Sequence record: CP014066.2
DNA length: 18,415 bases
Source: a plasmid
Direction: 5' to 3' (one strand)
A model generated the notes under the pieces. The model searched no databases and had not been told where the DNA came from. It worked only from the letters and a program-made list of their open reading frames with translations. The first letter of the stretch is position 1. Each line of letters opens with the position of its first letter. Positions 1 through 18,415 of the stretch are shown here, piece after piece. Made by a program: the position numbers and the translations under genes.

Positions 1-981
1 AAGCGGTGAGCGCACTCCGGCACCGCCAACTTTCAGCACATGCGTGTAAATCATCGTCGTAGAGACGTCGGAATGGCCGAGCAGATCCTGCACGGTTCGA
101 ATGTCGTAACCGCTGCGGAGCAAGGCCGTCGCGAACGAGTGGCGGAGGGTGTGCGGTGTGGCGGGCTTCGTGATGCCTGCTTGTTCTACGGCACGTTTGA
201 AGGCGCGCTGAAAGGTCTGGTCATACATGTGATGGCGACGCACGACACCGCTCCGTGGATCGGTCGAATGCGTGTGCTGCGCAAAAACCCAGAACCACGG
301 CCAGGAATGCCCGGCGCGCGGATACTTCCGCTCAAGGGCGTCGGGAAGCGCAACGCCGCTGCGGCCCTCGGCCTGGTCCTTCAGCCACCATGCCCGTGCA
401 CGCGACAGCTGCTCGCGCAGGCTGGGTGCCAAGCTCTCGGGTAACATCAAGGCCCGATCCTTGGAGCCCTTGCCCTCCCGCACGATGATCGTGCCGTGAT
501 CGAAATCCAGATCCTTGACCCGCAGTTGCAAACCCTCACTGATCCGCATGCCCGTTCCATACAGAAGCTGGGCGAACAAACGATGCTCGCCTTCCAGAAA
601 ACCGAGGATGCGAACCACTTCATCCGGGGTCAGCACCACCGGCAAGCGCCGCGACGGCCGAGGTCTTCCGATCTCCTGAAGCCAGGGCAGATCCGTGCAC
701 AGCACCTTGCCGTAGAAGAACAGCAAGGCCGCCAATGCCTGACGATGCGTGGAGACCGAAACCTTGCGCTCGTTCGCCAGCCAGGACAGAAATGCCTCGA
801 CTTCGCTGCTGCCCAAGGTTGCCGGGTGACGCACACCGTGGAAACGGATGAAGGCACGAACCCAGTGGACATAAGCCTGTTCGGTTCGTAAACTGTAATG
901 CAAGTAGCGTATGCGCTCACGCAACTGGTCCAGAACCTTGACCGAACGCAGCGGTGGTAACGGCGCAGTGGCGGTTTTCAT
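1..981 (-). CDS. intI1: Class 1 integron integrase IntI1, first 327 codons (start codon at 981..979). The ORF runs off the window start and continues at 18415
   Basis: The reverse complement of 961..981 reads ATGAAAACCGCCACTGCGCCG (MKTATAP). The gene is adjacent to attI1 and contains Pc. The sequence matches the remembered 5'-CS. Confidence 0.93.
866..894 (+). promoter_or_regulatory. Cassette promoter Pc, weak PcW variant: -35 TGGACA (866..871), 17-bp spacer, -10 TAAACT (889..894), no TGN
   Basis: Hexamers read directly. Located inside intI1 and oriented toward attI1 and the cassette. Confidence 0.8.
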
Positions 982-984
982 GGC

Positions 985-1010
985 TTGTTATGACTGTTTT
1001 TTTGTACAGT
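985..1010. promoter_or_regulatory. P2 hexamers TTGTTA (985..990) and TACAGT (1005..1010) with a 14-bp spacer (inactive form, no GGG insertion). The LexA box CTGTTTTTTTGTACAG (994..1009) overlaps the intI1 promoter
   Basis: Direct reading. CTGT-N8-ACAG palindrome. Confidence 0.7.
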
Positions 1011-1054
1011 CTATGCCTCGGGCATCCAAGCAGCAAGCGCGTTACGCCGTGGGT

Positions 1055-1123
1055 CGATGTTTGATGTTATGGAGCAGCAACGATGTTACGCAGCAGGGCA
1101 GTCGCCCTAAAACAAAGTTAGGC
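1055..1123 (+). other. attI1: attI1 recombination site; core GTTAGGC at 1117..1123, crossover between 1117 and 1118
   Basis: Canonical attI1 sequence ...AGTCGCCCTAAAACAAAGTTAGGC immediately upstream of the first cassette. Confidence 0.75.
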
Positions 1124-1126
1124 CGC

Positions 1127-1660
1127 ATGGACACAACGCAGGTCACATTGATACACAAAATTCTAGCTGCGGCAGATGAGCGAAATCTGCCGCTCTGGAT
1201 CGGTGGGGGCTGGGCGATCGATGCACGGCTAGGGCGTGTAACACGCAAGCACGATGATATTGATCTGACGTTTCCCGGCGAGAGGCGCGGCGAGCTCGAG
1301 GCAATAGTTGAAATGCTCGGCGGGCGCGTCATGGAGGAGTTGGACTATGGATTCTTAGCGGAGATCGGGGATGAGTTACTTGACTGCGAACCTGCTTGGT
1401 GGGCAGACGAAGCGTATGAAATCGCGGAGGCTCCGCAGGGCTCGTGCCCAGAGGCGGCTGAGGGCGTCATCGCCGGGCGGCCAGTCCGTTGTAACAGCTG
1501 GGAGGCGATCATCTGGGATTACTTTTACTATGCCGATGAAGTACCACCAGTGGACTGGCCTACAAAGCACATAGAGTCCTACAGGCTCGCATGCACCTCA
1601 CTCGGGGCGGAAAAGGTTGAGGTCTTGCGTGCCGCTTTCAGGTCGCGATATGCGGCCTAA
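1127..1660 (+). CDS. aadB: Aminoglycoside 2''-O-nucleotidyltransferase ANT(2'')-Ia (gentamicin/tobramycin/kanamycin resistance), gene cassette
   Basis: 177-aa product MDTTQVTLIHKILAAADERNLPLWIGGGWAIDARLG... recognised as AadB. ATG 5 nt after attI1 core, followed by attC. Confidence 0.93.
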   Translation: MDTTQVTLIHKILAAADERNLPLWIGGGWAIDARLGRVTRKHDDIDLTFPGERRGELEAIVEMLGGRVMEELDYGFLAEIGDELLDCEPAWWADEAYEIAEAPQGSCPEAAEGVIAGRPVRCNSWEAIIWDYFYYADEVPPVDWPTKHIESYRLACTSLGAEKVEVLRAAFRSRYAA

Positions 1661-1714
1661 CAATTCGTCCAAGCCGACGCCGCTTCGCGGCGCGGCTTAA
1701 CTCAGGTGTTAGAT
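1655..1714 (+). other. attC: aadB attC (59-be), ~60 bp: inverse core GCCTAAC (1655..1661), core GTTAGAT (1708..1714)
   Basis: Imperfect inverted repeat bounded by RYYYAAC/GTTRRRY cores. The 3'-CS starts right after it. Confidence 0.75.
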
Positions 1715-1816
1715 GCACTAAGCACATAATTGCTCACAGCCAAACTATCAGGTCAAGTCTGCTTTTATTATTTTTAAGCGTGCATAATAAGCCCTACACA
1801 AATTGGGAGATATATC

Positions 1817-2164
1817 ATGAAAGGCTGGCTTTTTCTTGTTATCGCAATAGTTGGCGAAGTAATCGCAACATCCGCATTAAAATCTAGCGAGGGCTTTACT
1901 AAGCTTGCCCCTTCCGCCGTTGTCATAATCGGTTATGGCATCGCATTTTATTTTCTTTCTCTGGTTCTGAAATCCATCCCTGTCGGTGTTGCTTATGCAG
2001 TCTGGTCGGGACTCGGCGTCGTCATAATTACAGCCATTGCCTGGTTGCTTCATGGGCAAAAGCTTGATGCGTGGGGCTTTGTAGGTATGGGGCTCATAAT
2101 TGCTGCCTTTTTGCTCGCCCGATCCCCATCGTGGAAGTCGCTGCGGAGGCCGACGCCATGGTGA
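1817..2164 (+). CDS. qacEdelta1: Truncated small-multidrug-resistance (SMR) efflux protein QacEdelta1 (3'-CS)
   Basis: 115-aa product [27 protein letters not shown]... with the characteristic altered C-terminus. Overlaps the sul1 start. Confidence 0.93.
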
Positions 2165-2997
2165 CGGTGTTCGGCATTCTGAATCTCACCGAGGACTCCT
2201 TCTTCGATGAGAGCCGGCGGCTAGACCCCGCCGGCGCTGTCACCGCGGCGATCGAAATGCTGCGAGTCGGATCAGACGTCGTGGATGTCGGACCGGCCGC
2301 CAGCCATCCGGACGCGAGGCCTGTATCGCCGGCCGATGAGATCAGACGTATTGCGCCGCTCTTAGACGCCCTGTCCGATCAGATGCACCGTGTTTCAATC
2401 GACAGCTTCCAACCGGAAACCCAGCGCTATGCGCTCAAGCGCGGCGTGGGCTACCTGAACGATATCCAAGGATTTCCTGACCCTGCGCTCTATCCCGATA
2501 TTGCTGAGGCGGACTGCAGGCTGGTGGTTATGCACTCAGCGCAGCGGGATGGCATCGCCACCCGCACCGGTCACCTTCGACCCGAAGACGCGCTCGACGA
2601 GATTGTGCGGTTCTTCGAGGCGCGGGTTTCCGCCTTGCGACGGAGCGGGGTCGCTGCCGACCGGCTCATCCTCGATCCGGGGATGGGATTTTTCTTGAGC
2701 CCCGCACCGGAAACATCGCTGCACGTGCTGTCGAACCTTCAAAAGCTGAAGTCGGCGTTGGGGCTTCCGCTATTGGTCTCGGTGTCGCGGAAATCCTTCT
2801 TGGGCGCCACCGTTGGCCTTCCTGTAAAGGATCTGGGTCCAGCGAGCCTTGCGGCGGAACTTCACGCGATCGGCAATGGCGCTGACTACGTCCGCACCCA
2901 CGCGCCTGGAGATCTGCGAAGCGCAATCACCTTCTCGGAAACCCTCGCGAAATTTCGCAGTCGCGACGCCAGAGACCGAGGGTTAGATCATGCCTAG
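2158..2997 (+). CDS. sul1: Sulfonamide-resistant dihydropteroate synthase Sul1
   Basis: 279-aa product [28 protein letters not shown]... The ATG overlaps the qacEdelta1 end, as in the 3'-CS. Confidence 0.94.
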
Positions 2998-3124
2998 CAT
3001 TCACCTTCCGGCCGCCCGCTAGCGGACCCTGGTCAGGTTCCGCGAAGGTGGGCGCAGACATGCTGGGCTCGTCAGGATCAAACTGCACTATGAGGCGGCG
3101 GTTCATACCGCGCCAGGGGAGCGA

Positions 3125-3625
3125 ATGGACAGCGAGGAGCCTCCGAACGTTCGGGTCGCCTGCTCGGGTGATATCGACGAGGTTGTGCGGCTGATGCACG
3201 ACGCTGCGGCGTGGATGTCCGCCAAGGGAACGCCCGCCTGGGACGTCGCGCGGATCGACCGGACATTCGCGGAGACCTTCGTCCTGAGATCCGAGCTCCT
3301 AGTCGCGAGTTGCAGCGACGGCATCGTCGGCTGTTGCACCTTGTCGGCCGAGGATCCCGAGTTCTGGCCCGACGCCCTCAAGGGGGAGGCCGCATATCTG
3401 CACAAGCTCGCGGTGCGACGGACACATGCGGGCCGGGGTGTCAGCTCCGCGCTGATCGAGGCTTGCCGCCATGCCGCGCGAACGCAGGGGTGCGCCAAGC
3501 TGCGGCTCGACTGCCACCCGAACCTGCGTGGCCTATACGAGCGGCTCGGATTCACCCACGTCGACACTTTCAATCCCGGCTGGGATCCAACCTTCATCGC
3601 AGAACGCCTAGAACTCGAAATCTAA
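3125..3625 (+). CDS. orf5: orf5, GNAT-family N-acetyltransferase of the 3'-CS
   Basis: 166-aa product MDSEEPPNVRVACSGDIDEVVRLMHDAAAW... in the standard position downstream of sul1. Confidence 0.85.
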   Translation: MDSEEPPNVRVACSGDIDEVVRLMHDAAAWMSAKGTPAWDVARIDRTFAETFVLRSELLVASCSDGIVGCCTLSAEDPEFWPDALKGEAAYLHKLAVRRTHAGRGVSSALIEACRHAARTQGCAKLRLDCHPNLRGLYERLGFTHVDTFNPGWDPTFIAERLELEI

Positions 3626-3912
3626 CGTCCGTTCGGGCATCGAGGTCCATGTCGGGGTGGGACGGGCCCGTGGCTTCAAGATCACTTGCAGTCCGACCGC
3701 GATGTCTTGGTTGCGCGAGAGGTTGTCGATATCCTCCACTTCCATCATCAACCCTGGATAATGCCGCCGCCGTCATCGCCGCCGACGCCCGTGCCGGGCT
3801 TTTCGGGCCTGTCAGGCTTGCTCGGCCTTCAGCCTGCCTGGGCGAGATCTCCGGCGGACGGATTAACGGCGGAGCTTCGCCGCCTTTCGTGCGTGTGAAG
3901 GCCGAAGATAGG

Positions 3913-4791
3913 GCTCTGTTGCAAAAATCGTGAAGCTTGAGCATGCTTGGCGGAGATTGGACGGACGGAACGATGACGGATTTCAAGTGGCGCCATTTCC
4001 AGGGTGATGTGATCCTGTGGGCGGTGCGCTGGTATTGTCGCTATCCGATCAGCTATCGCGACCTTGAGGAAATGCTGGCGGAACGCGGCATTTCGGTCGA
4101 CCATACGACGATCTATCGCTGGGTCCAGTGCTACGCCCCGGAGATGGAGAAGCGGCTGCGCTGGTTCTGGCGGCGTGGCTTTGATCCGAGCTGGCGCCTG
4201 GATGAAACCTACGTCAAGGTGCGGGGCAAGTGGACCTACCTGTACCGGGCAGTCGACAAGCGGGGCGACACGATCGATTTCTACCTGTCGCCGACCCGCA
4301 GCGCCAAGGCAGCGAAGCGGTTCCTGGGCAAGGCCCTGCGAGGCCTGAAGCACTGGGAAAAGCCTGCCACGCTCAATACCGACAAAGCGCCGAGCTATGG
4401 TGCAGCGATCACCGAATTGAAGCGCGAAGGAAAGCTGGACCGGGAGACGGCCCACCGGCAGGTGAAGTATCTCAATAACGTGATCGAGGCCGATCACGGA
4501 AAGCTCAAGATACTGATCAAGCCGGTGCGCGGTTTCAAATCGATCCCCACGGCCTATGCCACGATCAAGGGATTCGAAGTCATGCGAGCCCTGCGCAAAG
4601 GACAGGCTCGCCCCTGGTGCCTGCAGCCCGGCATCAGGGGCGAGGTGCGCCTTGTGGAGAGAGCTTTTGGCATTGGGCCCTCGGCGCTGACGGAGGCCAT
4701 GGGCATGCTCAACCACCATTTCGCAGCAGCCGCCTGATCGGCGCAGAGCGACAGCCTACCTCTGACTGCCGCCAATCTTTGCAACAGAGCC
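3913..4791 (+). mobile_element. IS6100 (IS6 family), complete; 14-bp terminal IRs GGCTCTGTTGCAAA at 3913..3926 and 4778..4791 (inverted)
   Basis: Terminal inverted repeats read directly. A 254-aa IS6-type transposase ORF lies between them. ~880 bp overall. Confidence 0.92.
3973..4737 (+). CDS. tnpA: IS6100 transposase
   Basis: 254-aa product MTDFKWRHFQGDVILWAVRWYCRYPISYRDLEEMLAERGISVDHTTIYRW... (IS6/IS26-family DDE transposase). Confidence 0.93.
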   Translation: MTDFKWRHFQGDVILWAVRWYCRYPISYRDLEEMLAERGISVDHTTIYRWVQCYAPEMEKRLRWFWRRGFDPSWRLDETYVKVRGKWTYLYRAVDKRGDTIDFYLSPTRSAKAAKRFLGKALRGLKHWEKPATLNTDKAPSYGAAITELKREGKLDRETAHRQVKYLNNVIEADHGKLKILIKPVRGFKSIPTAYATIKGFEVMRALRKGQARPWCLQPGIRGEVRLVERAFGIGPSALTEAMGMLNHHFAAAA

Positions 4792-6607: not shown

Positions 6608-6841
6608 CTACGCGGTGAGTGACTGCCGCACCGCGTCCAGGGCCTGGCGGAAGTCGTCCCGCGTGGCTTGGCCCGTCTCGGCCTGGTAGTACAGCACCAT
6701 GAACATATTGGCGACGGCTTCCGCCATCGGCGAGAGCTGCCGCGCCGCCTCTTGGTCGATCCAGTCCAGGGCCGCGAGCTGTGCGGCCGCATGATGGACT
6801 GCCTGGGTTGCGATTGCATTGGTAGGATTCAAAGTTGCCAT
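6608..6841 (-). CDS. Hypothetical protein, 77 aa
   Basis: ATG start with RBS GAGGTG at good spacing. Protein-like composition. Directly followed by the terminator. Confidence 0.5.
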   Translation of the reverse strand: MATLNPTNAIATQAVHHAAAQLAALDWIDQEAARQLSPMAEAVANMFMVLYYQAETGQATRDDFRQALDAVRQSLTA

Positions 6842-6904
6842 GATTCACCTCTGTGGTAGGTGGGTTGTGGAAGTGTCGGCCGGCCCCACGCCGGCCGGCG
6901 CGCT

Positions 6905-7162
6905 TTACCGCTGGCCGCTGCTGTAGATGCCGGCGGCCTCGGCCAGCGGCGTGTTCCTGTTGCTGCCGCTGTAGCTGTTGCTCGATGACCTGGCCGCTGG
7001 CCTGGTGGCCTCGATGGCAGACGGGACAGGGCGATCAACGAAGGCCGCCACTTCCGCCGCTGCATCAAGCTCGGTTGATTGGTCGCCAGGCTGCTCAAAC
7101 TCCACCGCCTGACGCTGCACCTGGTCGAGCGCCAGGCAGTCGAAAAATCCACTACGTTTCAT
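6905..7162 (-). CDS. Hypothetical protein, 85 aa (ATG at 7162; the ORF track shows an upstream GTG)
   Basis: RBS GGAGG 7 nt upstream. The start lies 2 nt after the trbL stop. Confidence 0.45.
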   Translation of the reverse strand: MKRSGFFDCLALDQVQRQAVEFEQPGDQSTELDAAAEVAAFVDRPVPSAIEATRPAARSSSNSYSGSNRNTPLAEAAGIYSSGQR

Positions 7163-7164
7163 AG

Positions 7165-8826
7165 TCACGCCTCCGATTTACCGTGCTCGCGGTTGGCGAA
7201 CGCGGCCACTTCATCATCAGGATCGGCAGCGGCCGAATCGGCCCCTGCCAAGTTGTTGTCGCCGAATGTCGGCACCGCCTCGGCAGCGCCGGCCTGGTCG
7301 CTCTCCGCGCGCGCCCTGATCGCCGCCGCGATCTTCCCGCCGGTGGTGTCGGCGATGCGCTCGGCGGCGGCGGCGCGGATGCTGGCGGCCTTGGCCTTCG
7401 CAACCTCTCCGACGCCTTGCATCAGGTTCGCGCTGGCGTCGGCCGTCACGCGGCCCGCCGTGCCAAGCGCCGATGCGGCCGAGGCCAGCAAGCCGGGGCC
7501 GGTGCTGCCTGGTGCGGCCTGCTGGCCGCCTTGCTGGGCGTTCTTGTTGCCGGCGTCGTCGCCCCCTTTCGAGCTGGAACCGCCGCCCGATTTACCGGAC
7601 TGCTGCCCATTGCCGCCACCCGAACCGCTGGCACCTCTGCCCGAGCTGCTGCCGAAACCGGCGGCCTGTGCAAGTGGTGTAGTGGTGCCTGCACCTGAGC
7701 CTGACCCGCCACCAAAGCCAGCAGCTTGCGCAAACGAGCCAGCATCGCTGCCGGAGTCGGAGCCACCGCCGAGCATGGGCATTCCGCCCGATTCACCGCC
7801 AGCGCTCGATCCTGCTTTCTCGAACGCTGCCTTGATCGCCGACATGCCGCCGGCGGCCGAGGCTGCACCACCCATCACGGCCGCACCAGCCACGCTTGCC
7901 GCACCGGCGGCCATGCTCGCCGCGCCCATAGCCGCACCGATGGCAGCACCCGCGCCGAAGTTGCCGATGCCACCCGCGCCGCCGATACCCGAGCCGGTGA
8001 TGATGCCGGCGATGAGAGGGGGCACACGATTGACCAGCATGAGCAACGCCACGCAGAAAACCAGCATCACGCCCAGCTCTTCAAAGTTCAGCGTGCCGGT
8101 GTTCATCCTGGCGTAGAAGCTGGAAAGCAGGTCGTTCCCGATGCCGACCAGGAGCACCATCGTCATGATCTGCACGGCCACGCCCAGCACGGTCTTGTAG
8201 TAGTTGATCGCCATGTCGGACGTCCAACGCGAACCACCGAAGCCGAGGAAGAAGATGCCGGCGTACATCAGCAGCCAGCCCGAGACGAGCAGCAGCAGCA
8301 TATTCACGGCGACAACTGCCAGCAGGATCAGGATGCCAACGCTCAAGGCCACACCGATGAAGCTATCCACGGGCGACCAGATCGACGAGTTTGTGAATGC
8401 CTGCTTCAAGATCATGAAGCCGATATCCACGATGCCCGAGGGTGTCACCGATGCCACCCCGGATGCCTGCTCACCGATCCGGGCCAGTGACTGGATGATC
8501 GAGTTGGCGAAGGCGGGGCCGTTGCGCAGCAGCCAGAGGAAAAAGCCGAAGAACAGAATGAAGCGGATGAACTCGGCGAAGAACTCGCCAATGTCGGCCT
8601 TGCGCAGCGCCATGAAGCCGAACGTGAAAACCAGCGAGATCGTGCCCAGCGTCCAGAACAGGAACATCGCGGCATTCATCACCACCGTCTGCCAGGACGT
8701 GGCCCGCGTGGCGAACTCCGTCACCACCTGGTCAAGCATCCCCTGGTTGGTGAGCTGGGCCGATGCAGCGGTGGAGTAGAGCGCGAGGGTGACGCCGATC
8801 AGCGCCGCCTTGTGCAGTGCTTTCAT
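7165..8826 (-). CDS. trbL: TrbL/VirB6-family conjugal transfer membrane protein with a long Gly/Ala/Ser-rich C-terminal tail (553 aa)
   Basis: N-terminal signal sequence MKALHKAALIGVTLALYSTAASA. Multiple TM helices. Follows trbJ-trbK as in RP4. The track ORF 7165..8991 has no in-frame stop upstream, so its start was trimmed to the ATG with an RBS. Confidence 0.8.
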   Translation of the reverse strand: MKALHKAALIGVTLALYSTAASAQLTNQGMLDQVVTEFATRATSWQTVVMNAAMFLFWTLGTISLVFTFGFMALRKADIGEFFAEFIRFILFFGFFLWLLRNGPAFANSIIQSLARIGEQASGVASVTPSGIVDIGFMILKQAFTNSSIWSPVDSFIGVALSVGILILLAVVAVNMLLLLVSGWLLMYAGIFFLGFGGSRWTSDMAINYYKTVLGVAVQIMTMVLLVGIGNDLLSSFYARMNTGTLNFEELGVMLVFCVALLMLVNRVPPLIAGIITGSGIGGAGGIGNFGAGAAIGAAMGAASMAAGAASVAGAAVMGGAASAAGGMSAIKAAFEKAGSSAGGESGGMPMLGGGSDSGSDAGSFAQAAGFGGGSGSGAGTTTPLAQAAGFGSSSGRGASGSGGGNGQQSGKSGGGSSSKGGDDAGNKNAQQGGQQAAPGSTGPGLLASAASALGTAGRVTADASANLMQGVGEVAKAKAASIRAAAAERIADTTGGKIAAAIRARAESDQAGAAEAVPTFGDNNLAGADSAAADPDDEVAAFANREHGKSEA

Positions 8827-9092
8827 GGCTTCGCCCCCTTCTGGTCTTTCGGGTCGGCCAGTTCGAGCCAGTTCATGGGCTTCTCGGTCGGCGCGATGCC
8901 GCCGGCGGCTGGCGACCGGCGCGAGCACAGCCCGGCGAATTTCTCGCGCGTGGCCCTGTCCTCGATCTTCTTGATCGCCTCGATCTGGCAATTGGTGTCA
9001 TTGACCTCTGGCATGGGCGGGATGGCCGGCTTGTTGTCGCAGCCGGCCATCAGCACCACCACGAGGCCGGCAAGCAGCATCGTTTTCTTCAT
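8823..9092 (-). CDS. trbK: Small lipoprotein in the TrbK position (entry-exclusion protein candidate), 89 aa
   Basis: Lipobox LMAGC after a hydrophobic signal. Located between trbJ and trbL with ATGA overlap to trbL and an RBS GGAGG. Confidence 0.55.
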   Translation of the reverse strand: MKKTMLLAGLVVVLMAGCDNKPAIPPMPEVNDTNCQIEAIKKIEDRATREKFAGLCSRRSPAAGGIAPTEKPMNWLELADPKDQKGAKP

Positions 9093-9107
9093 GGTGCAGG
9101 GCCTCCG

Positions 9108-9893
9108 TCAGCGGGTCAGTTCGAGCCAGTTTCTCGGGCTTGCCGTGCGCTCGATCCTGGATTCCCTGGAAGTCGCGCCGGCGGCCTGCTGCTGCGCTTC
9201 AAGGTCGGCCTGCGCCTGCATCCTGGCGGTAGCGGCGTTCTGCTGCGCGATCAGCAAGCCACGGATTTGCAGGAGCTGGTTCGCCTGGTTGGCGGCGAGC
9301 TGGTTGGCGAAGCCGATAGCCTGCATCTGGCCGGTCGCGCCTTGTGCGGCCGACTGGAGCCGTTCGAGCTGGCGAGCGTCGGCGGTAAGGTTGCGCTGCT
9401 GCTGCTCCAGACCCTTGAAAAGCGCGTCGTTCGCCTTCTTCTGGCTCTCGCTCGACAGGCGGCGGTTTTGCTCCATCGCGGCGCGCTCGGCATCCGAGCA
9501 CCCGGCGGCCGAGAAGCACGGCGAGCTGCGGTAGTAGCTCACATCCTGGAATTTGCCCAGGTAGGCATCGAGACTGCCGAGCTGGTTCCTGTAGTAGTCC
9601 AGCGTGTTGACGGCATTCATCAGCCCGTTGATCGTGGACTGCGCCTGATCCCAGATGTAGGCCGCCGGGGCCATCGTGTTTTGCAGCATGTTCTCGTACT
9701 GCTGCAATTGGGTCTGGTACTGCTCGATCTGCTTGAGCGTCTGCGCCACCGACTCGATGGCCGTCATGACGTTCTGCACCAGGTTCCCGCCGTCGATGAC
9801 GGGGATGCCGGCCTGCGCTGGGGTGATGATGATGCTGCCGGCCAGGACGGCGGCGAGCGCGGTTTTAGCCGCTAAAAGGCGGACGTGCTTCAT
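9108..9893 (-). CDS. trbJ: TrbJ (VirB5-like) conjugal transfer protein, 261 aa
   Basis: Product MKHVRLLAAK...AQAGIPVIDGGNLVQNVMTAIESVAQTLKQIEQYQTQLQQYENMLQNT... closely parallels RP4 TrbJ from memory. Confidence 0.85.
   Translation of the reverse strand: MKHVRLLAAKTALAAVLAGSIIITPAQAGIPVIDGGNLVQNVMTAIESVAQTLKQIEQYQTQLQQYENMLQNTMAPAAYIWDQAQSTINGLMNAVNTLDYYRNQLGSLDAYLGKFQDVSYYRSSPCFSAAGCSDAERAAMEQNRRLSSESQKKANDALFKGLEQQQRNLTADARQLERLQSAAQGATGQMQAIGFANQLAANQANQLLQIRGLLIAQQNAATARMQAQADLEAQQQAAGATSRESRIERTASPRNWLELTR
9864..9876. promoter_or_regulatory. KorB-operator-type palindrome TTTAGCCGCTAAA (OB-like site 1), inside the 5' end of trbJ
   Basis: Exact match to the RK2 OB consensus TTTAGC(G/C)GCTAAA. 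One of four copies. Confidence 0.7.
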
Positions 9894-10083
9894 GGTCGAG
9901 TTCCTCGATGTGATGAAGTGGCTGCTCTGAACCGCACCTAGAAGATGCGGAGCTGGGCCATCACAGAGACAGCTCGCCACGTCGCGCTGTCCGGTACCCG
10001 ACCTTGGCGACACCGTTGCGCCCGGCCATTTTTGTTGAACATCGGTGTAGTGCTATCTAACGTCATTCGCGCCAGATAGCAAA

Positions 10084-10111
10084 ATTATACATTAAGCACG
10101 CATAACGACAA
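10084..10111 (-). promoter_or_regulatory. Sigma70-type promoter on the minus strand: -35 TTGTCG, 16-bp spacer, -10 TATAAT. Reads toward trbJ-trbK-trbL
   Basis: Perfect -10 hexamer. Paralogous to the parA promoter at 17136..17163. Confidence 0.55.
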
Positions 10112-10128
10112 GCACAAAAGCACGCAAT

Positions 10129-11961
10129 CTATCGCCCGCGCCCCTTGCCCTTGTCCTGGCGTTTGGCCTTCTTGGCTTCCATCTGCGCCCGTAGCCGTGC
10201 CTGGCGCTGTTCCAGCTCGGACGGCGCGGGCTTGGCCGGCTGCTGCACTTTGGCCGGCGGCGGTGTCGGGGTGGCCTGGGTCGGTGCTTGTGCCGGCCGC
10301 TGGGCTTCGCCCTCGATGTGCAGCCCGTCGAGCTGGCCCAACGTGCGCAGGCCATGCCGGCGATGCGGTGGCGGTTCCTGGCCGACAGGGGGCACACCCA
10401 GCCGGCGCTTGGCCTGGGCCTTGGTGGCCTCGGCCTGCCGCCGGCTTTCCAGTGCCGGATCGGCGAAGGTGATGGGGAGCTGGGCATCGACGGCCGCCCG
10501 GATCACGGCAGCCTTGAACTCCACGCTGCCGCTGACAGTGATGCGCTCGCCGTAGCGTTCCATTGCCAGGCGCAGCGCCGCCGCCACGCCGGCGCGGTCG
10601 GCCTGGCTGGACACGGCCAGACGCTCGCCGTCATCGCGCACGGCCGAGCTGCCGGCGCGGTAGATGATCGTGCCCTTCTTCGTGATGCTGTCGATCACCG
10701 GGGTATGGCCGGGCTTCGCCTGGCCGTCGCCCTGGATGGTGTCGCCCTTGAGGCCCTGGGCCGCCTCGCGGGCGCGCAGCGCATCGAGCGCCTGGCCGTC
10801 GCCGGCCGTTGCCTGCTGCTTGAGCCAGTCGGCCCACGGCCGCCGGCGGTGCTCGTTGTAGATCGCCGCCCGCTCCTGGTCGTGGCGCTTGTGGATCGCC
10901 TCCAGGTCGGCCCGCAGCGCGGCGCTGGCCTGGGCATACAGCAGCTTCTTGGTCAGCCGGCCATCGGTCAGGTGCTTGATGGCCGCCCGCCGGGTGGCCG
11001 CCGCCTTCTTGGCGTTCTCGATGGCCCGATCCTTCCGGCGCTTCGCCTCGGCCAGCACGCCGGCCCTGGCGGCCGTGAGGGTCTGCTGTGCGCCCTTGTA
11101 CCGGGCGTAAAGCTCGGTCGTGTCCAGGCCGCCGCGCAGACGCATCGGCCGGCCCTTCTGGTAGTTGCGCCGTGCCGGCGCGGCCTGGCGCTCGGGCGAC
11201 GCCTCGAACGTGCCAAGCCGCTTTTCCAGGGCAGGCTTGGACAGGTCGCGGGCCAAGGTGCTGGCCTTGATGATCGTGCCGTCGCCGGCCTCGATGACCA
11301 GGCCGTTACCGCGTGCGCGCAGCGCCAGGCCGTTATCGCGCATGACCTGGTGCAGCTCGGCCCAGCTCGCCGCGCCCTTGATCTCGTCCAGGCACTCGCG
11401 CTTGATCCAGCCGACCAGGCTTTCCACGCCGGCGTGCTGCTCCAGGTCGCCGGCCCTGGCGGCCGCGCCGCGCTGGCGTGACTCGTGGTTGTCACGCTCC
11501 AGGCCGTAGTCGCGTTCCAGGGTCGTGCAGAGGTCGGCCAGCGCCCGATGCGAGTAGTACGGCTCCTGCATCGTGCCCCTGGTCGGGTGAATCTTGTTGA
11601 TGGCGATGTGGATGTGCAGGTTGTCGGTGTCGTTATGCACGGCGCTGACGCGCTGATGCTCGCCCAGGCCCAGCCCGTCGCAGATGCGGGCCTCGATCTG
11701 CCGCAGGGTGTCGGCGCTCGGCTGCTCGCCGGCGCGAAAGCTGACGATCAGGTGATAGGTCTTGTCGCCCTTGGCCCGCGTGTTGGCCTGCTGGGTCGCC
11801 AGCACCTCGGTGATGGCATCGCGCACGGTGTCGGCGGCGCAGTTCGTGACCTGCACCTGGCCCAGCCGGTGGTCTTTGCTCTGCGCGTCGGTGACATACC
11901 GCACCAGGCCGGCGAAGTCGGACTTACCCAGCGAGCGCATGGGCACGTGCTTGGCGATCAC
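10129..11961 (-). CDS. traI: MobP-family relaxase TraI (GTG start), 610 aa
   Basis: N-terminus VIAKHVPMRSLGKSDFAGLVRYVTDAQ... and the HxH motif HNDTDNLHIHIAINKIHP match RP4 TraI. The start overlaps the traJ stop (GTGA). Confidence 0.88.
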   Translation of the reverse strand: MIAKHVPMRSLGKSDFAGLVRYVTDAQSKDHRLGQVQVTNCAADTVRDAITEVLATQQANTRAKGDKTYHLIVSFRAGEQPSADTLRQIEARICDGLGLGEHQRVSAVHNDTDNLHIHIAINKIHPTRGTMQEPYYSHRALADLCTTLERDYGLERDNHESRQRGAAARAGDLEQHAGVESLVGWIKRECLDEIKGAASWAELHQVMRDNGLALRARGNGLVIEAGDGTIIKASTLARDLSKPALEKRLGTFEASPERQAAPARRNYQKGRPMRLRGGLDTTELYARYKGAQQTLTAARAGVLAEAKRRKDRAIENAKKAAATRRAAIKHLTDGRLTKKLLYAQASAALRADLEAIHKRHDQERAAIYNEHRRRPWADWLKQQATAGDGQALDALRAREAAQGLKGDTIQGDGQAKPGHTPVIDSITKKGTIIYRAGSSAVRDDGERLAVSSQADRAGVAAALRLAMERYGERITVSGSVEFKAAVIRAAVDAQLPITFADPALESRRQAEATKAQAKRRLGVPPVGQEPPPHRRHGLRTLGQLDGLHIEGEAQRPAQAPTQATPTPPPAKVQQPAKPAPSELEQRQARLRAQMEAKKAKRQDKGKGRGR

Positions 11962-12335
11962 GATTGTCCGCCTCGCGGCCGCACCACGCTTTCCGCGATG
12001 GTGCTGATCTTGTCCTGGGTCGCCTCGATCCGGGCCAGCAGCGCCCGGATGGTGTCATCGCCGAAGCGGGCCGTGCGCGGGTCGTCGGTCAGCCAGAGCT
12101 TGAGCAGGCCGCCCAGCCGGCCGAGGTCGCCATTCACGCGCACCAGGTCGCGCACGTTCTCGAAGTCGGTCACGCCTTTGACCTGGTAGCCCTGGCCGAC
12201 CGCCAGCAGGTAGGCGGACGTGCTCATGCCGGCGGCCTGGGCGTTGGCCTCGATGGCGGCCCGTTCATCCGGCAGGCAATAGACCTTGATGGGCGTGCTG
12301 CCCTTCCTCGTTACCTTGTTCTCGTTGGCCTCCAT
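11958..12335 (-). CDS. traJ: Relaxosome accessory protein TraJ (oriT-binding), 125 aa
   Basis: Product ...GSTPIKVYCLPDERAAIEANAQAAGMSTSAYLLAVGQGY...NGDLGRLGGLLKLWLTDDPRTARFGD... is very similar to RP4 TraJ from memory. Confidence 0.85.
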   Translation of the reverse strand: MEANENKVTRKGSTPIKVYCLPDERAAIEANAQAAGMSTSAYLLAVGQGYQVKGVTDFENVRDLVRVNGDLGRLGGLLKLWLTDDPRTARFGDDTIRALLARIEATQDKISTIAESVVRPRGGQS

Positions 12336-12427
12336 CTTGGCGTCCTCTGTCGTTGCCGGCGGCCGCCGGCTGGCCCCGCAGGGCAGGATGCCCCGTTGAG
12401 CGCCGCAGGCGCGAATAAGGGGAAGTG

Positions 12428-12480
12428 AAGAGGATCACCATGCTTGCATGGTGGGCCTACTTCACACATCCTGCCCTCTA
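12428..12480 (+). other. oriT: oriT: TraJ-binding inverted repeat CACCATGC-TT-GCATGGTG (12428..12445) and nick region GGGCCTACTTCACACATCCTG|CCC (predicted nic between 12473 and 12474)
   Basis: Near-identical to the RP4 oriT nick region (GGGCCTACTTCACCTATCCTGCCC) from memory. Lies between divergent traJ and traK. Confidence 0.75.
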
Positions 12481-12690
12481 TTCAGCATTGCATTCAATGC
12501 GGAAACTATACACGCGCCATTGTGGATTTGCATGGTATCTAGCAAGGAAACCTAGCGCCTATGGATGCAACACGGCAAAATGCAGGGGAATCCGCTTGCT
12601 TGCAGGACTTCACGCGCCGTTTCAGCGCATATTCCATGTGCTTTCCACTAGCTTTACACACATGAACCCGCGTGCATTACACAAACAGGA

Positions 12691-13119
12691 ATGAAGCCGA
12701 TGGGAACCCGATACACCGATGAACTTGCCGCCTGGGCCGATCAGAAGGCCGAGAAGAAGCGCCGCCAGGACGCGGCGGCAGTAGCGTTTCTGGCGGTGCG
12801 CGGGGATGTGGTCGAGGCAATGGAAGCCGGCTACGCGCTGACGACGATCTACGATCACATGCACGAAACCGGCCGGGTGAAAACCAGCTATGAGACGTTC
12901 CGCCGGCACGTCCAGCGGTTCATCAAGGCAGCGCCGGCCGACACCGCGCCGCCGACACCGAAGGCCGCCACCAGGTCGGCCAGCAACTCGCCGACCACCG
13001 TTCCAGCCGTCACGCCAAAGCCGGCCGTACCAGCTCCGGCCAGCCCTGCCAGCGAGCAAGCCGGGAAGATTCCCAGCTTCAATTTCAACCCGACGCCGAA
13101 CAAAGAGGACTTGCTGTAA
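12691..13119 (+). CDS. traK: TraK oriT-binding relaxosome protein (alternative start at 12700), 142 aa
   Basis: Product ...YTDELAAWADQKAEKKRRQDAAAVAFLAVRGDVVEAMEAGYALTTIYDHMHETGRVKTSYETFRRHV... parallels RP4 TraK. Divergent from traJ across oriT. Confidence 0.8.
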   Translation: MKPMGTRYTDELAAWADQKAEKKRRQDAAAVAFLAVRGDVVEAMEAGYALTTIYDHMHETGRVKTSYETFRRHVQRFIKAAPADTAPPTPKAATRSASNSPTTVPAVTPKPAVPAPASPASEQAGKIPSFNFNPTPNKEDLL

Positions 13120-13180: not shown

Positions 13181-13193
13181 TTTAGCGGCTAAA
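13181..13193. promoter_or_regulatory. KorB-operator-type palindrome TTTAGCGGCTAAA (OB-like site 2), preceded by the TTGCGTGCTTTT motif shared with the two TATAAT promoters
   Basis: Exact 13-mer. Confidence 0.7.
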
Positions 13194-15149: not shown

Positions 15150-15161
15150 GTTTAGCTAAAC
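15150..15161. promoter_or_regulatory. KorA-operator-type 12-bp palindrome GTTTAGCTAAAC (OA-like), overlapping the rep stop codon and abutting iteron 5
   Basis: Exact match to the RK2 OA consensus. Single copy in the window. Confidence 0.6.
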
Positions 15162-16166
15162 CGTGGGGCCGCCCTTGTAGGGGATGGGCGGTGGCGAGCC
15201 GATCAGCAGCACGCCGCCGGTGACAGGCTTCACCCTCGCTTGCGGATAGACGGCCAGCACCTTCTTGAGCGCCGGCAAAAACTCCTTCTTGAAGTCCTTG
15301 TCGGGGTCTTTGCCTCGGTACTCCTGGGCGAACTGCTCGCGCAGCGCCTTCCAGTGCAACGTCACACCTCGGCCTTCGATGCGGTGCAGTCGGTGGGCCA
15401 GCCACGCATACACGTCCAGGGCCAGCGCGGAACCTTTCAGGGCGTGCAGAGCGCGATTGTCCAGCGGCACGGCGCTTTCGATCAGGGAGCCGTAGTAGTC
15501 CTCTGACAGCACCATGACGCCGGGCCATAGGGCGCGCTGCTGCGTGTCCTTGTTCGACACCCAGGCGTCGAATTGCTGCACCGGCTGGCCGTTGTAGGTG
15601 CGCCCCTTGAACCCGAGTTGCAGGCGAGCGGCGGCAAGGGCGTGCATCTGCTTCCGTAGCGTCGTGTAGCGGCGGCCGTCGCTCTCCATCCCCATCAGCC
15701 GCAGGAACTCGGCGGCACTGTCGCCGATGGGAATCTCCCGCTCCTTGTTGCGCACGGCGAAGGTGGAAACCCACGCCAGACCAAGCCGGGGCATGACGCC
15801 ATAGGGGATAGGTTGCAGCACCGGCCCCTTCCCTTCGTCCAGATAGCCGGCCTGGACATTGACCCAGGCCGCGCCGGACTGTCGCATGAACTCACGGCCT
15901 TCGACCTTGGCGCGAGGCAAACCGACCTGGCACAGCACCGCATGAGTGAAAGCCATGTCCTCGCCGGCCGGCGGGGTGGTGGCAATCTCCGCGCTGGCCT
16001 CGATCAGCTTCTGGTCGGCCCCGGTCAAGATGAGGCCGGCCGGCGTGATCTTCTTGGTTTGGCGCTTCGGCGGCGGCAATGCTGCCTTGGCCTGCGCCTG
16101 GGCCACCAGGTCGCCCATGATCTCGCCGATCTGCTGCGCGCCCTGCCCTTCTCGCTTCTTGGTCAT
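15156..16166 (-). CDS. trfA: Plasmid replication initiator, TrfA-family (probable), 336 aa
   Basis: Balanced, protein-like composition in contrast to the overlapping junk ORFs. Adjacent to the iterons. RBS GGAGGG. Recognised as TrfA-like from memory, not from a computed alignment. Confidence 0.65.
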   Translation of the reverse strand: MTKKREGQGAQQIGEIMGDLVAQAQAKAALPPPKRQTKKITPAGLILTGADQKLIEASAEIATTPPAGEDMAFTHAVLCQVGLPRAKVEGREFMRQSGAAWVNVQAGYLDEGKGPVLQPIPYGVMPRLGLAWVSTFAVRNKEREIPIGDSAAEFLRLMGMESDGRRYTTLRKQMHALAAARLQLGFKGRTYNGQPVQQFDAWVSNKDTQQRALWPGVMVLSEDYYGSLIESAVPLDNRALHALKGSALALDVYAWLAHRLHRIEGRGVTLHWKALREQFAQEYRGKDPDKDFKKEFLPALKKVLAVYPQARVKPVTGGVLLIGSPPPIPYKGGPTV

Positions 16167-16180
16167 GCTGGTGGCCCTCC

Positions 16181-16193
16181 TTTAGCGGCTAAA
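16181..16193. promoter_or_regulatory. KorB-operator-type palindrome TTTAGCGGCTAAA (OB-like site 3), 2 bp upstream of the rep RBS in the 29-bp parG-rep intergenic gap
   Basis: Exact 13-mer. Confidence 0.7.
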
Positions 16194-17189: not shown

Positions 17190-17202
17190 TTTAGCCGCTA
17201 AA
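17190..17202. promoter_or_regulatory. KorB-operator-type palindrome TTTAGCCGCTAAA (OB-like site 4), overlapping the resolvase stop codon and upstream of the parA promoter
   Basis: Exact 13-mer. Confidence 0.7.
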
Positions 17203-18106: not shown

Positions 18107-18180
18107 GCTGGCTCCTTTGGGCATACCTGAATGCGCCTATCGTAGCCCGGCAGGCTCATTTATCAAAGCACGATCTATAT

Positions 18181-18205
18181 TGTCGTTTTCAGAAGACGGC
18201 TGCAC
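18181..18205 (+). repeat. IRi, 25-bp terminal inverted repeat at the intI1 end of the integron (TGTCGTTTTCAGAAGACGGCTGCAC)
   Basis: Exact 25-mer. Partner of IRt (23/25 identical in inverted orientation). Confidence 0.9.
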
Positions 18206-18382
18206 TGAACGTCAGAAGCCGACTGCACTATAGCAGCGGAGGGGTTGGATCCATCAGGCAACGACGGGCTGCTGCCGGCCATCAGCGGACGCAGGGAGGA
18301 CTTTCCGCAACCGGCCGTTCGATGCGGCACCGATGGCCTTCGCGCAGGGGTAGTGAATCCGCCAGGATTGACTTGCGCTGCC

Positions 18383-18415
18383 CTACCTCTCACTAGTGAG
18401 GGGCGGCAGCGCATC
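18383..18415 (-). CDS. intI1: intI1 3' end (10 codons DALPPLTSER plus TAG), in frame with 1..981 if the window is circular
   Basis: The reverse complement of 18383..18415 reads GATGCGCTGCCGCCCCTCACTAGTGAGAGGTAG. Frame continuity gives 1,014 nt = 337 aa plus stop. Confidence 0.8.
   Translation of the reverse strand, partial: DALPPLTSER

Follow-up and report, generated by a model that had tools for sequence, protein, structure and literature searches.

Sequence analysis of a small, probably mobilizable resistance plasmid with an IncP-1-type relaxosome and an orphan trbJ-trbK-trbL cassette whose TrbJ and TrbK proteins have a common C-terminal tail

The plasmid sequence CP014066.2 (18,415 nt; this whole stretch is referred to below as the window) was analyzed with respect to its transfer genes, namely, an IncP-1-type relaxosome (traI, traJ, traK and the origin of transfer, oriT) and three genes, trbJ, trbK and trbL, of the Tra2 region. 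The window is a complete resistance plasmid, predicted to be mobilizable but not self-transmissible, and its trbJ-trbK-trbL (trbJKL) cassette is a maintained, mobile unit and no remnant. The last residues of TrbJ recur at the C-terminus of the lipoprotein TrbK of the same module, and this shared tail suggests, judging by sequence, exclusion by tail mimicry. We lean towards the reading that the plasmid parasitizes helpers with P-type Trb machinery, in which case trbJKL would exclude such machines in the host cell and would replace helper subunits in donors.

The integrase IntI1 (337 aa) is whole again when the reading is continued across the junction of the window ends; therefore, the window is a complete 18.4-kb circle, and the absence of a gene from it applies to the entire replicon. 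The sequence has a high GC content and is densely coding. When the whole window was searched by tblastn with 20 Tra/Trb proteins of R751, nothing beyond TraI, TraJ, TraK, TrbJ, TrbK and TrbL was revealed: no match was obtained for TrbB-I, TrbM/N, TraF, TraG or TraL/M. A separate search gave no match for TrfA, KorB, KorA or TrbA either, the nearest thing to IncC being a distant ParA (32% identity over 160 aa). Pfam and NCBIfam scans of the non-transfer open reading frames (ORFs) returned integron, toxin-antitoxin, replication, partition and resolvase functions only (the integron, RelE/ParE-CopG and ptaRNA1 toxin-antitoxins, kfrA, a RepA_C rep, parA with a ribbon-helix-helix partner, and a serine resolvase). 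Thus, three hallmarks of an IncP-1 plasmid, namely, the TrfA/oriV replicon, the korA-incC-korB set and a complete Tra2 (trbB-L) with traF and traG, are absent from the window, Tra2 being represented by TrbJ, TrbK and TrbL only. The coupling protein, VirB4-type ATPase and mating-pair core that characterize a conjugative plasmid are likewise missing from the complete circle. No integrase of the type found in integrative mobilizable elements (IME) and no AlpA were found in the window, its recombinases being only IntI1 of the integron and the serine resolvase, so it does not fall among the PIMEs, a published group of integrating elements considered below. Self-transfer by an unrecognized minimal system, for which the presence of two subunits of a type IV secretion system (T4SS) and nothing more speaks, has a negligible probability, since the scans and tblastn searches of the complete circle detected neither a VirB4-type ATPase nor a coupling protein, a pilin or genes of the core complex, and MOB-suite types the near-identical plasmid pMRCP1333 as mobilizable.

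The transfer genes and associated sites are listed below. Bit scores are compared with curated profile thresholds, where such exist, and identities refer to R751 as the IncP-1 reference.

trbL, 7165-8826, minus strand: VirB6-type protein, 553 aa (TIGR02783, 251 bits vs. cut-off 129; PF04610)
trbK, 8823-9092, minus strand: entry-exclusion-type lipoprotein, 89 aa (TIGR04359, 78.7 bits vs. 23)
trbJ, 9108-9893, minus strand: VirB5-type protein, 261 aa (NF010452, 423 bits vs. 286; 74% identity to R751)
Promoter candidate, 10084-10111, minus strand: sigma-70-like TTGTCG-16-TATAAT between traI and trbJ, 10 of 12 consensus matches
traI, 10129-11961, minus strand: MOBP relaxase, 610 aa (NF041893, 566 bits vs. 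cut-off 250; PF03432, PF22863)
traJ, 11958-12335, minus strand: oriT-binding relaxosome protein (NF010451, 191 bits vs. 134; 60% identity to R751 TraJ)
oriT core, 12380-12477, plus strand: within the traJ-traK spacer, which aligns with R751 oriT
traK, 12691-13119, plus strand: DUF5338/TraK family (PF17273, 83 bits vs. 25.9; 44% identity to R751 TraK)

TraI is 73% identical to R751 TraI over the first 525 aa and is without the approximately 140 C-terminal residues found in the latter. The traJ and traK genes are divergent and have oriT between them, which contains an imperfect inverted repeat (12431-12458) and the nick motif ATCCTG/C (the slash marks the nick). The nick-region sequence ACTTCACACATCCTGCCC is identical to that of R751, with 18 bases matching around the nick site, and the nick is therefore predicted between 12473 and 12474. 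The relaxase score, the flanking TraJ and TraK genes, the inverted repeat and the nick motif together point to a MOBP relaxosome and oriT of the IncP-1 type. An inverted copy of the nick-region sequence was observed at 12380-12390. In addition, the Rfam traJ-II RNA motif (12372-12476, minus strand, 109 bits) overlaps the oriT inverted repeat and the nick region, and the two, an RNA motif and a DNA origin of transfer, may be one conserved sequence.

The start of trbL follows the annotation of pMRCP1333 (99.9% identical), the mechanical ORF reaching 8991. TrbL consists of a conserved N-terminal membrane domain (58% identity to R751 over the N-terminal 280 aa), a low-complexity Gly/Ser/Ala middle part and a conserved C-terminal motif, DEVAAFANRE. 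In TrbK (53% identity to R751 TrbK), the lipobox LMAGC precedes an Asp at position +2 of the mature protein, which is the usual inner-membrane retention signal, and the lipoprotein is predicted to act in exclusion in recipients. Searches of PDB sequences revealed no solved relatives of TrbJ, TrbK or TrbL. In IncP-1 plasmids, trbJ directly follows trbI within the trb gene cluster, whereas in the window it is preceded by the promoter candidate, the sequence of which is identical in an Ottowia plasmid. The leader of approximately 170 nt from the promoter-like site to the trbJ start (9894-10083, minus strand) is conserved among family members, and the promoter region upstream of this leader occurs among them in two unrelated versions.

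An earlier note on this DNA, made from the sequence alone, had described an RP4-like relaxosome with exactly trbJ, trbK and trbL and had denied the plasmid a coupling protein, TrbB-I and any other T4SS genes. Profile scans and R751 identities recovered all six genes at the same positions, the absences held on the complete circle, and the tblastn search of TraG and TrbB-I against the whole plasmid that the note had proposed was run and confirmed them. The predicted dependence on a helper with an IncP-1-type machine is in keeping with the homology and with published work on the relatives pPE52IMP and PIME1, and a lipoprotein of the TrbK entry-exclusion type is indeed encoded, as indicated by the TIGR04359 score, the lipobox and the place of the gene between trbJ and trbL.

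To evaluate how frequent the orphan cassette is, a TrbJ alignment was used to scan a set of genomes in which each species is represented once; the best 80 loci were used, and a locus was regarded as orphan if no trbB-I was present within 10 kb. Approximately 68 of these 80 loci contained trbJ-(K)-trbL without trbB-I, whereas only approximately 11 were situated within complete trb operons. Downstream of trbL, the ptaRNA1 toxin was found in 42 of 74 orphan loci and a small gene, orf87, in 33 of 74; neither was found after trbL in any of 10 complete trb operons, where trbM stands instead. The median ratios of nonsynonymous to synonymous substitution rates (dN/dS) between the window and 42 orphans of its own tail class (class A, see below) were 0.147 for trbJ, 0.238 for trbK and 0.111 for the trbL N-domain, compared with 0.341 for the low-complexity C-terminal part of trbL and 0.233 for traI. 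Thus, purifying selection acts on the orphan trbJKL genes as strongly as it does on traI. The ORFs of the cassette are intact across dozens of species, and the cassette was found on two unrelated replicons as well as in chromosomal elements. The earlier note had considered the retention of trbJ and trbL unusual and had allowed for a deletion scar, that is, decaying leftovers of an IncP-1-like conjugative ancestor that lost most of Tra2. Homology to the IncP-1 Tra2 genes and adjacency to the Tra1-core genes would fit a scar; however, this origin was rejected as highly improbable in view of the dN/dS values, the predominance of orphan loci, the intact ORFs, the orphan-specific synteny with orf87 and ptaRNA1, the promoter-like site of the cassette's own and its occurrence on unrelated replicons and in chromosomal elements. 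The layout is also anything but unusual: it is common among the closest TrbJ loci and has been published for several element families, so the architecture of the plasmid is already known.

Indeed, the paper of 2022 on pPE52IMP described the same gene set with traG and trbB-I missing and judged the plasmid mobilizable; no transconjugants were obtained, the data not being shown there (PMC9501424). A review of 2017 reported sets consisting of trbJ-trbK-trbL only in GIsul2 and in the "IncP island", including trbJKL without a relaxase gene in GIsul2, and proposed, by analogy with SGI1, that trbJKL reshape the helper mating apparatus to defeat exclusion (PMC5704250). A preprint of 2026 described 1,136 PIMEs with trbJ and trbL as core markers, and the IncP-1 plasmid pB10 was found to induce and mobilize PIME1, which has the same traIJK/trbJKL set (bioRxiv 10.64898/2026.01.12.698999).

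When divergent modules were aligned, TrbJ and the lipoprotein proved to be alike within a module over their last 12-20 residues, and these residues differ between modules. In the window, the two segments are as follows.

TrbJ C-terminal tail, 9111-9158, minus strand: RIERTASPRNWLELTR, tail class A
TrbK C-terminal segment, 8859-8897, minus strand: IAPTEKPMNWLEL, a copy of the TrbJ tail

The corresponding tails of other modules illustrate the co-variation.

Window: TrbJ RIERTASPRNWLELTR, TrbK IAPTEKPMNWLEL
X. cucurbitae plasmid: TrbJ RASPADNF, TrbK KPSPADNF
pF010_2: TrbJ NRSKAKGY, TrbK DRSKSKGY
R751: TrbJ RASPARTW, TrbK KPSPKREW
L080: TrbJ RASTGRTW, TrbK KPSTGRTW

Co-variation of the TrbJ and TrbK tails was found in at least 10 tail types. 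Among 63 distinct pairs, local alignment scores of the tails were 37-62 within a class and 12-23 between classes, the sole exception being the related classes A and E, which score high with each other. The mean score was 49 for cognate tail pairs vs. 15.6 for shuffled tails, and the observed sum of scores was reached in none of 20,000 permutations (p < 5e-5). The match extends to Neisseria pConj, Xylella pXFAS01, Sphingopyxis pCMS1, a Klebsiella plasmid and a Methylomonas plasmid, and in pTi-SAKURA it covers approximately 25 residues. Identical tail residues were encoded by identical codons in 54% of cases vs. 43% expected, which suggests that the match is maintained mainly in the protein sequence; on the same grounds, recent gene conversion was rejected as its only cause. 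No report of tail sharing between TrbJ and TrbK was found in the searchable literature, the coverage of which is incomplete, so an earlier description is possible.

Two observations on individual loci should be mentioned here. In the gonococcal Neisseria plasmid pConj (L093, approximately 1290-1560), a lipoprotein of 46 aa that has a TrbJ-like tail and lacks an annotation is encoded between trbJ and trbL. In pDS1 (L095, approximately 1370-1600), the body and the tail of the lipoprotein do not share a reading frame, which points to a frameshift or a sequencing error.

The tail class is tracked by TrbL and not by the core of TrbJ: the TrbL N-domain was 79-96% identical in pairs of the same tail class and 44-70% identical in pairs of different classes, whereas the values for the TrbJ core were 79-82% and 68-78%, respectively. 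Accordingly, the window and pBP136 are 93% identical in the TrbJ core, but only 57% identical in TrbL. In pBP136 (L003, 19839-20603), the TrbJ core is window-like, but the tail, TrbK and TrbL are R751-like, and this mosaic suggests a recombination breakpoint near TrbJ residue 225. Different cassettes were also found on one plasmid backbone, namely, class A in the window, class C in L006 and class D in L009. The class-specific positions of TrbL group in three hydrophilic segments, a pattern that is only suggestive without a reliable topology.

The window also contains perfect operators of the IncP-1 global regulators KorB and KorA. Four perfect KorB operators (TTTAGCSGCTAAA) were detected, against a chance expectation of 0.14 even with two mismatches permitted, along with one perfect KorA operator.

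KorB operator, 9864-9876: TTTAGCCGCTAAA, perfect match inside trbJ codons 6-10 (LLAAK)
KorB operator, 13181-13193: perfect, between the 3' ends of traK and kfrA
KorB operator, 16181-16193: perfect, 15 nt before the rep start codon
KorB operator, 17190-17202: perfect, approximately 90 nt before parA
KorA operator, 15150-15161: GTTTAGCTAAAC, perfect, overlapping the rep stop codon

The operator patterns were validated on R751 and pBP136, where they matched the control regions in which such operators are expected. The KorA operator is placed at the rep stop likewise in L001, L007 and L015. The KorB operator inside trbJ was found in 67 of 75 orphan loci (1.28 Mb) and also in R751 and pBP136; the same orphan loci contained 133 further perfect KorB operators vs. 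0.04 expected. Perfect operators in the absence of korB and korA were present in 66 of these 75 loci, and a KorB gene was encoded in none of the 75. It is likely, to judge from this distribution, that KorB and KorA of a helper regulate or partition orphan elements or are titrated by them. No link between KorB and orphan elements was found in the searchable literature, and the PIME preprint makes no mention of KorB. The proposed use of helper Kor proteins resembles the hijacking of the IncC parABS system by SGI1 (PMC10954446). The two proposals taken jointly, namely, that P-type TrbK displays a copy of the cognate TrbJ tail and that orphan elements use the Kor regulators of the helper, which would control, partition or induce them or be titrated by them, are put forward tentatively.

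Published data on exclusion proteins bear on the tail. The C-terminus of TrbK is indispensable for exclusion (PMC8923210), and the same source names no donor-side partner of IncP TrbK, a situation dating from 1996. TrbJ alone in a recipient protects against the RP4 machine, and TrbK likewise protects (PMC11045733). In Ti-plasmid exclusion, TrbJ and TrbK are synergistic, and a preprint of 2026 reported that a protection factor against the killing T4SS of Xanthomonas binds VirB5 and asked whether exclusion proteins elsewhere target VirB5 homologues. A tail common to TrbJ and TrbK would account for all four, that is, for the need for the TrbK C-terminus, the protection by TrbJ, the synergy in the Ti system and the binding of VirB5.

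The course of events under helper parasitism may be envisaged as follows. TraJ and TraK of the plasmid would bind oriT, TraI would nick it at the predicted site, and a co-resident helper would supply TraG, TrbB-I and TraF. The trbJ-trbK-trbL genes with orf87 and ptaRNA1 would form a conserved, horizontally spreading "helper-interface" cassette. In the host cell, inner-membrane TrbK, and probably TrbJ as well, would exclude incoming P-type machines of their own specificity class. In a donor with a helper, TrbJ (VirB5, tip/stalk) and TrbL (VirB6, stalk base) would most probably replace the helper subunits, and the hybrid machine would bear the specificity of the cassette and not that of the helper, so that entry into helper-occupied cells could become possible. 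The specificity determinant would be the C-terminal tail common to TrbJ and TrbK, which co-varies with TrbL, and the perfect KorB and KorA operators, in the absence of korB and korA, would place trbJ, rep and parA under the global regulators of the helper.

Several points weigh against this scheme. The modest excess of identical codons leaves room for some gene conversion. Physical adjacency alone could explain the co-inheritance of the tail, trbK and trbL; it accounts for their joint travel, yet not for the match between the two tails. Class-A tails also occur in complete trb operons (Thauera p2A1, L033/L036), and with a class-A helper of this kind, the cassette would be redundant. The KorB operator inside trbJ is present in complete IncP-1 plasmids as well, so the site is inherited and is no evidence of adaptation, and the promoter was called by consensus match only. 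Finally, the PIME study included no trbJ, trbK or trbL mutants, and helper co-transfer was not lowered by PIME1, unlike in the case of SGI1 (bioRxiv 10.64898/2026.01.12.698999), so the SGI1 analogy may be loose.

The same unreduced co-transfer would be expected if the cassette served immunity only, with TrbK and TrbJ guarding the recipient against P-type T4SS entry or contact-dependent killing and nothing being inserted into the helper machine. This is compatible with the protection that TrbJ and TrbK each afford against the RP4 T4SS (PMC11045733) and with their cooperation in Ti-plasmid exclusion. Under immunity only, TrbL would be kept merely because VirB6-type proteins stabilize VirB5-type proteins. 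Such stabilization of VirB5 by VirB6 is said to occur in A. tumefaciens, a finding ascribed to Hapfelmeier et al. in 2000. Nevertheless, a purely protective cassette appears rather unlikely: the TrbJ core retains 68-93% identity to its counterparts in bona fide IncP-1 machines despite the divergence of the tails, as would be expected of a protein that still has to fit the helper apparatus, and the trbL N-domain, including its membrane and cytoplasmic motifs, is the most constrained part of the three genes (dN/dS 0.11), which seems beyond the need for a chaperone.

It might also be supposed that TrbL and TrbJ make the channel of the helper suitable for the plasmid's shortened TraI-DNA substrate or extend the range of helpers or recipients, exclusion being secondary. 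In A. tumefaciens, VirB6 contacts the DNA substrate and VirB5 is located at the pilus tip; the missing C-terminal residues of TraI (approximately 140 aa in comparison with R751 TraI) and the copy of the TrbL C-terminal motif on orf87 would agree with such an adaptor. However, numerous orphan loci have trbJKL without a detectable relaxase gene nearby (e.g., L007, L027 and L028), so the cassette is not tied to one relaxase, and the constant retention of trbK and the copying of the TrbJ tail by TrbK would be left unexplained; the adaptor role is thus considered improbable. Should helper parasitism by way of tail mimicry be correct, the tail would be both the specificity determinant and the donor-side target of IncP-type exclusion, with exposed, class-specific segments of TrbL matched to it, the exclusion exerted by TrbJ made in recipients would be explained, and orphan trbJ-trbK-trbL cassettes would represent portable "specificity swaps".

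As for relatives, the backbone from the toxin-antitoxin genes through trbL-trbK-trbJ-traI-traJ-oriT-traK to kfrA is 99.9% identical to pMRCP1333 (AP025276.1, Pseudomonas) and approximately 96% identical to pMATVIM-7, the latter match consisting of two aligned pieces that cover 51% of the window between 5768 and 18145. Numerous backbone relatives were found in Pseudomonas, Achromobacter, Serratia, Enterobacter, Xanthomonas and Acidovorax. The plasmids pMRCP1333, pMATVIM-7 and pPE52IMP have the same six transfer genes and a class 1 integron inserted near the resolvase gene, but differ in integron content, which in the window consists of aadB, qacEdelta1, sul1 and IS6100. The replication protein of the window, of the RepA_C type (PF04796; rep, 15156-16166, minus strand), has no similarity to that of pMATVIM-7 and matches those of pMRCP1333, an Ottowia plasmid and an E. 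cloacae GIM-1 plasmid (84%). Consequently, the window lies outside the RepA-defined family of PMC9501424 despite the shared transfer and maintenance backbone. One transfer backbone is thus observed on two unrelated replicons (rep of the window and L002, 5853-7328), with a KorA operator beside rep in both. The plasmids pNOR-2000 and pAX22 were ruled out as family members, as they have traA, traC, traD and traG on another backbone.

Like the window, PIMEs, GIsul2 and the IncP island have an orphan trbJ-(K)-trbL set, often with traI, traJ, traK and an IncP-type oriT; they differ in chromosomal integration by a tyrosine integrase with AlpA and in excision on helper entry, whereas the window is an autonomous plasmid with replication and partition genes of its own and no such integrase. 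The chromosomal orphan loci analyzed here, which were not assigned to PIMEs, GIsul2 or the IncP island, contained KorB operators without korB and ptaRNA1 after trbL. SGI1 is alike in concept, since the TraG, TraH and TraN of this mobilizable element replace subunits of the IncC helper and change exclusion (PMC5704250), and it has helper-type partition or regulator sites (PMC10954446). It differs in that an MPF-F and not an MPF-T T4SS with unrelated proteins is involved, and its mechanism has been demonstrated experimentally, whereas that of the window is proposed from comparison. With R751 and pBP136, the window shares orthologous TraI, TraJ, TraK, TrbJ, TrbK and TrbL, the oriT nick region, the KorB operator in trbJ and the match of the TrbJ and TrbK tails. 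It differs from them in the absence of TrfA/oriV, KorA, KorB, IncC, TrbB-I, TrbM-P, TraF, TraG, TraL, TraM and the primase, in its tail (NWLEL type vs. SPxRxW type in the IncP-1 plasmids R751 and pBP136) and in the genes after trbL (orf87 and ptaRNA1 vs. trbM).

The plasmid belongs to a lineage that is already known, that of small carriers of integron-borne resistance with a broad host range. It would rely on IncP-1-type helpers in order to spread, which bears on the tracking of carbapenemase and aminoglycoside resistance in Pseudomonas, Achromobacter and Enterobacterales. The layout of the plasmid is known, whereas we could not find the tail co-variation and the orphan Kor operators in the searchable literature; the former provides a concrete hypothesis for the donor-side partner of IncP TrbK, and the KorB operators without korB hint at a way in which mobilizable elements of a very large class may sense or exploit IncP-1 helpers.

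The remaining features of the window are as follows.

intI1, 18175-18415 and 1-775, minus strand: integrase gene spanning the window ends
Class 1 integron, 911-4737: aadB (ANT(2'')-Ia), qacEdelta1, sul1, GNAT orf5 and IS6100
Rfam AAC_AAD leader/attI motif, 1071-1142
ptaRNA1 type I toxin-antitoxin, 6608-6905: toxin at 6608-6841, minus strand (PF12703, 134 bits), and PtaRNA1 antitoxin RNA at 6835-6905, plus strand (RF01811, 84.7 bits)
orf87, 6905-7168, minus strand: overlaps the trbL stop; the C-terminal motif of TrbL is repeated in its product as AEVAAFVDR

The product of orf87 had no match in Pfam or NCBIfam. Some loci of the Vibrio type have the C-terminal motif of TrbL itself on a separate ORF downstream.

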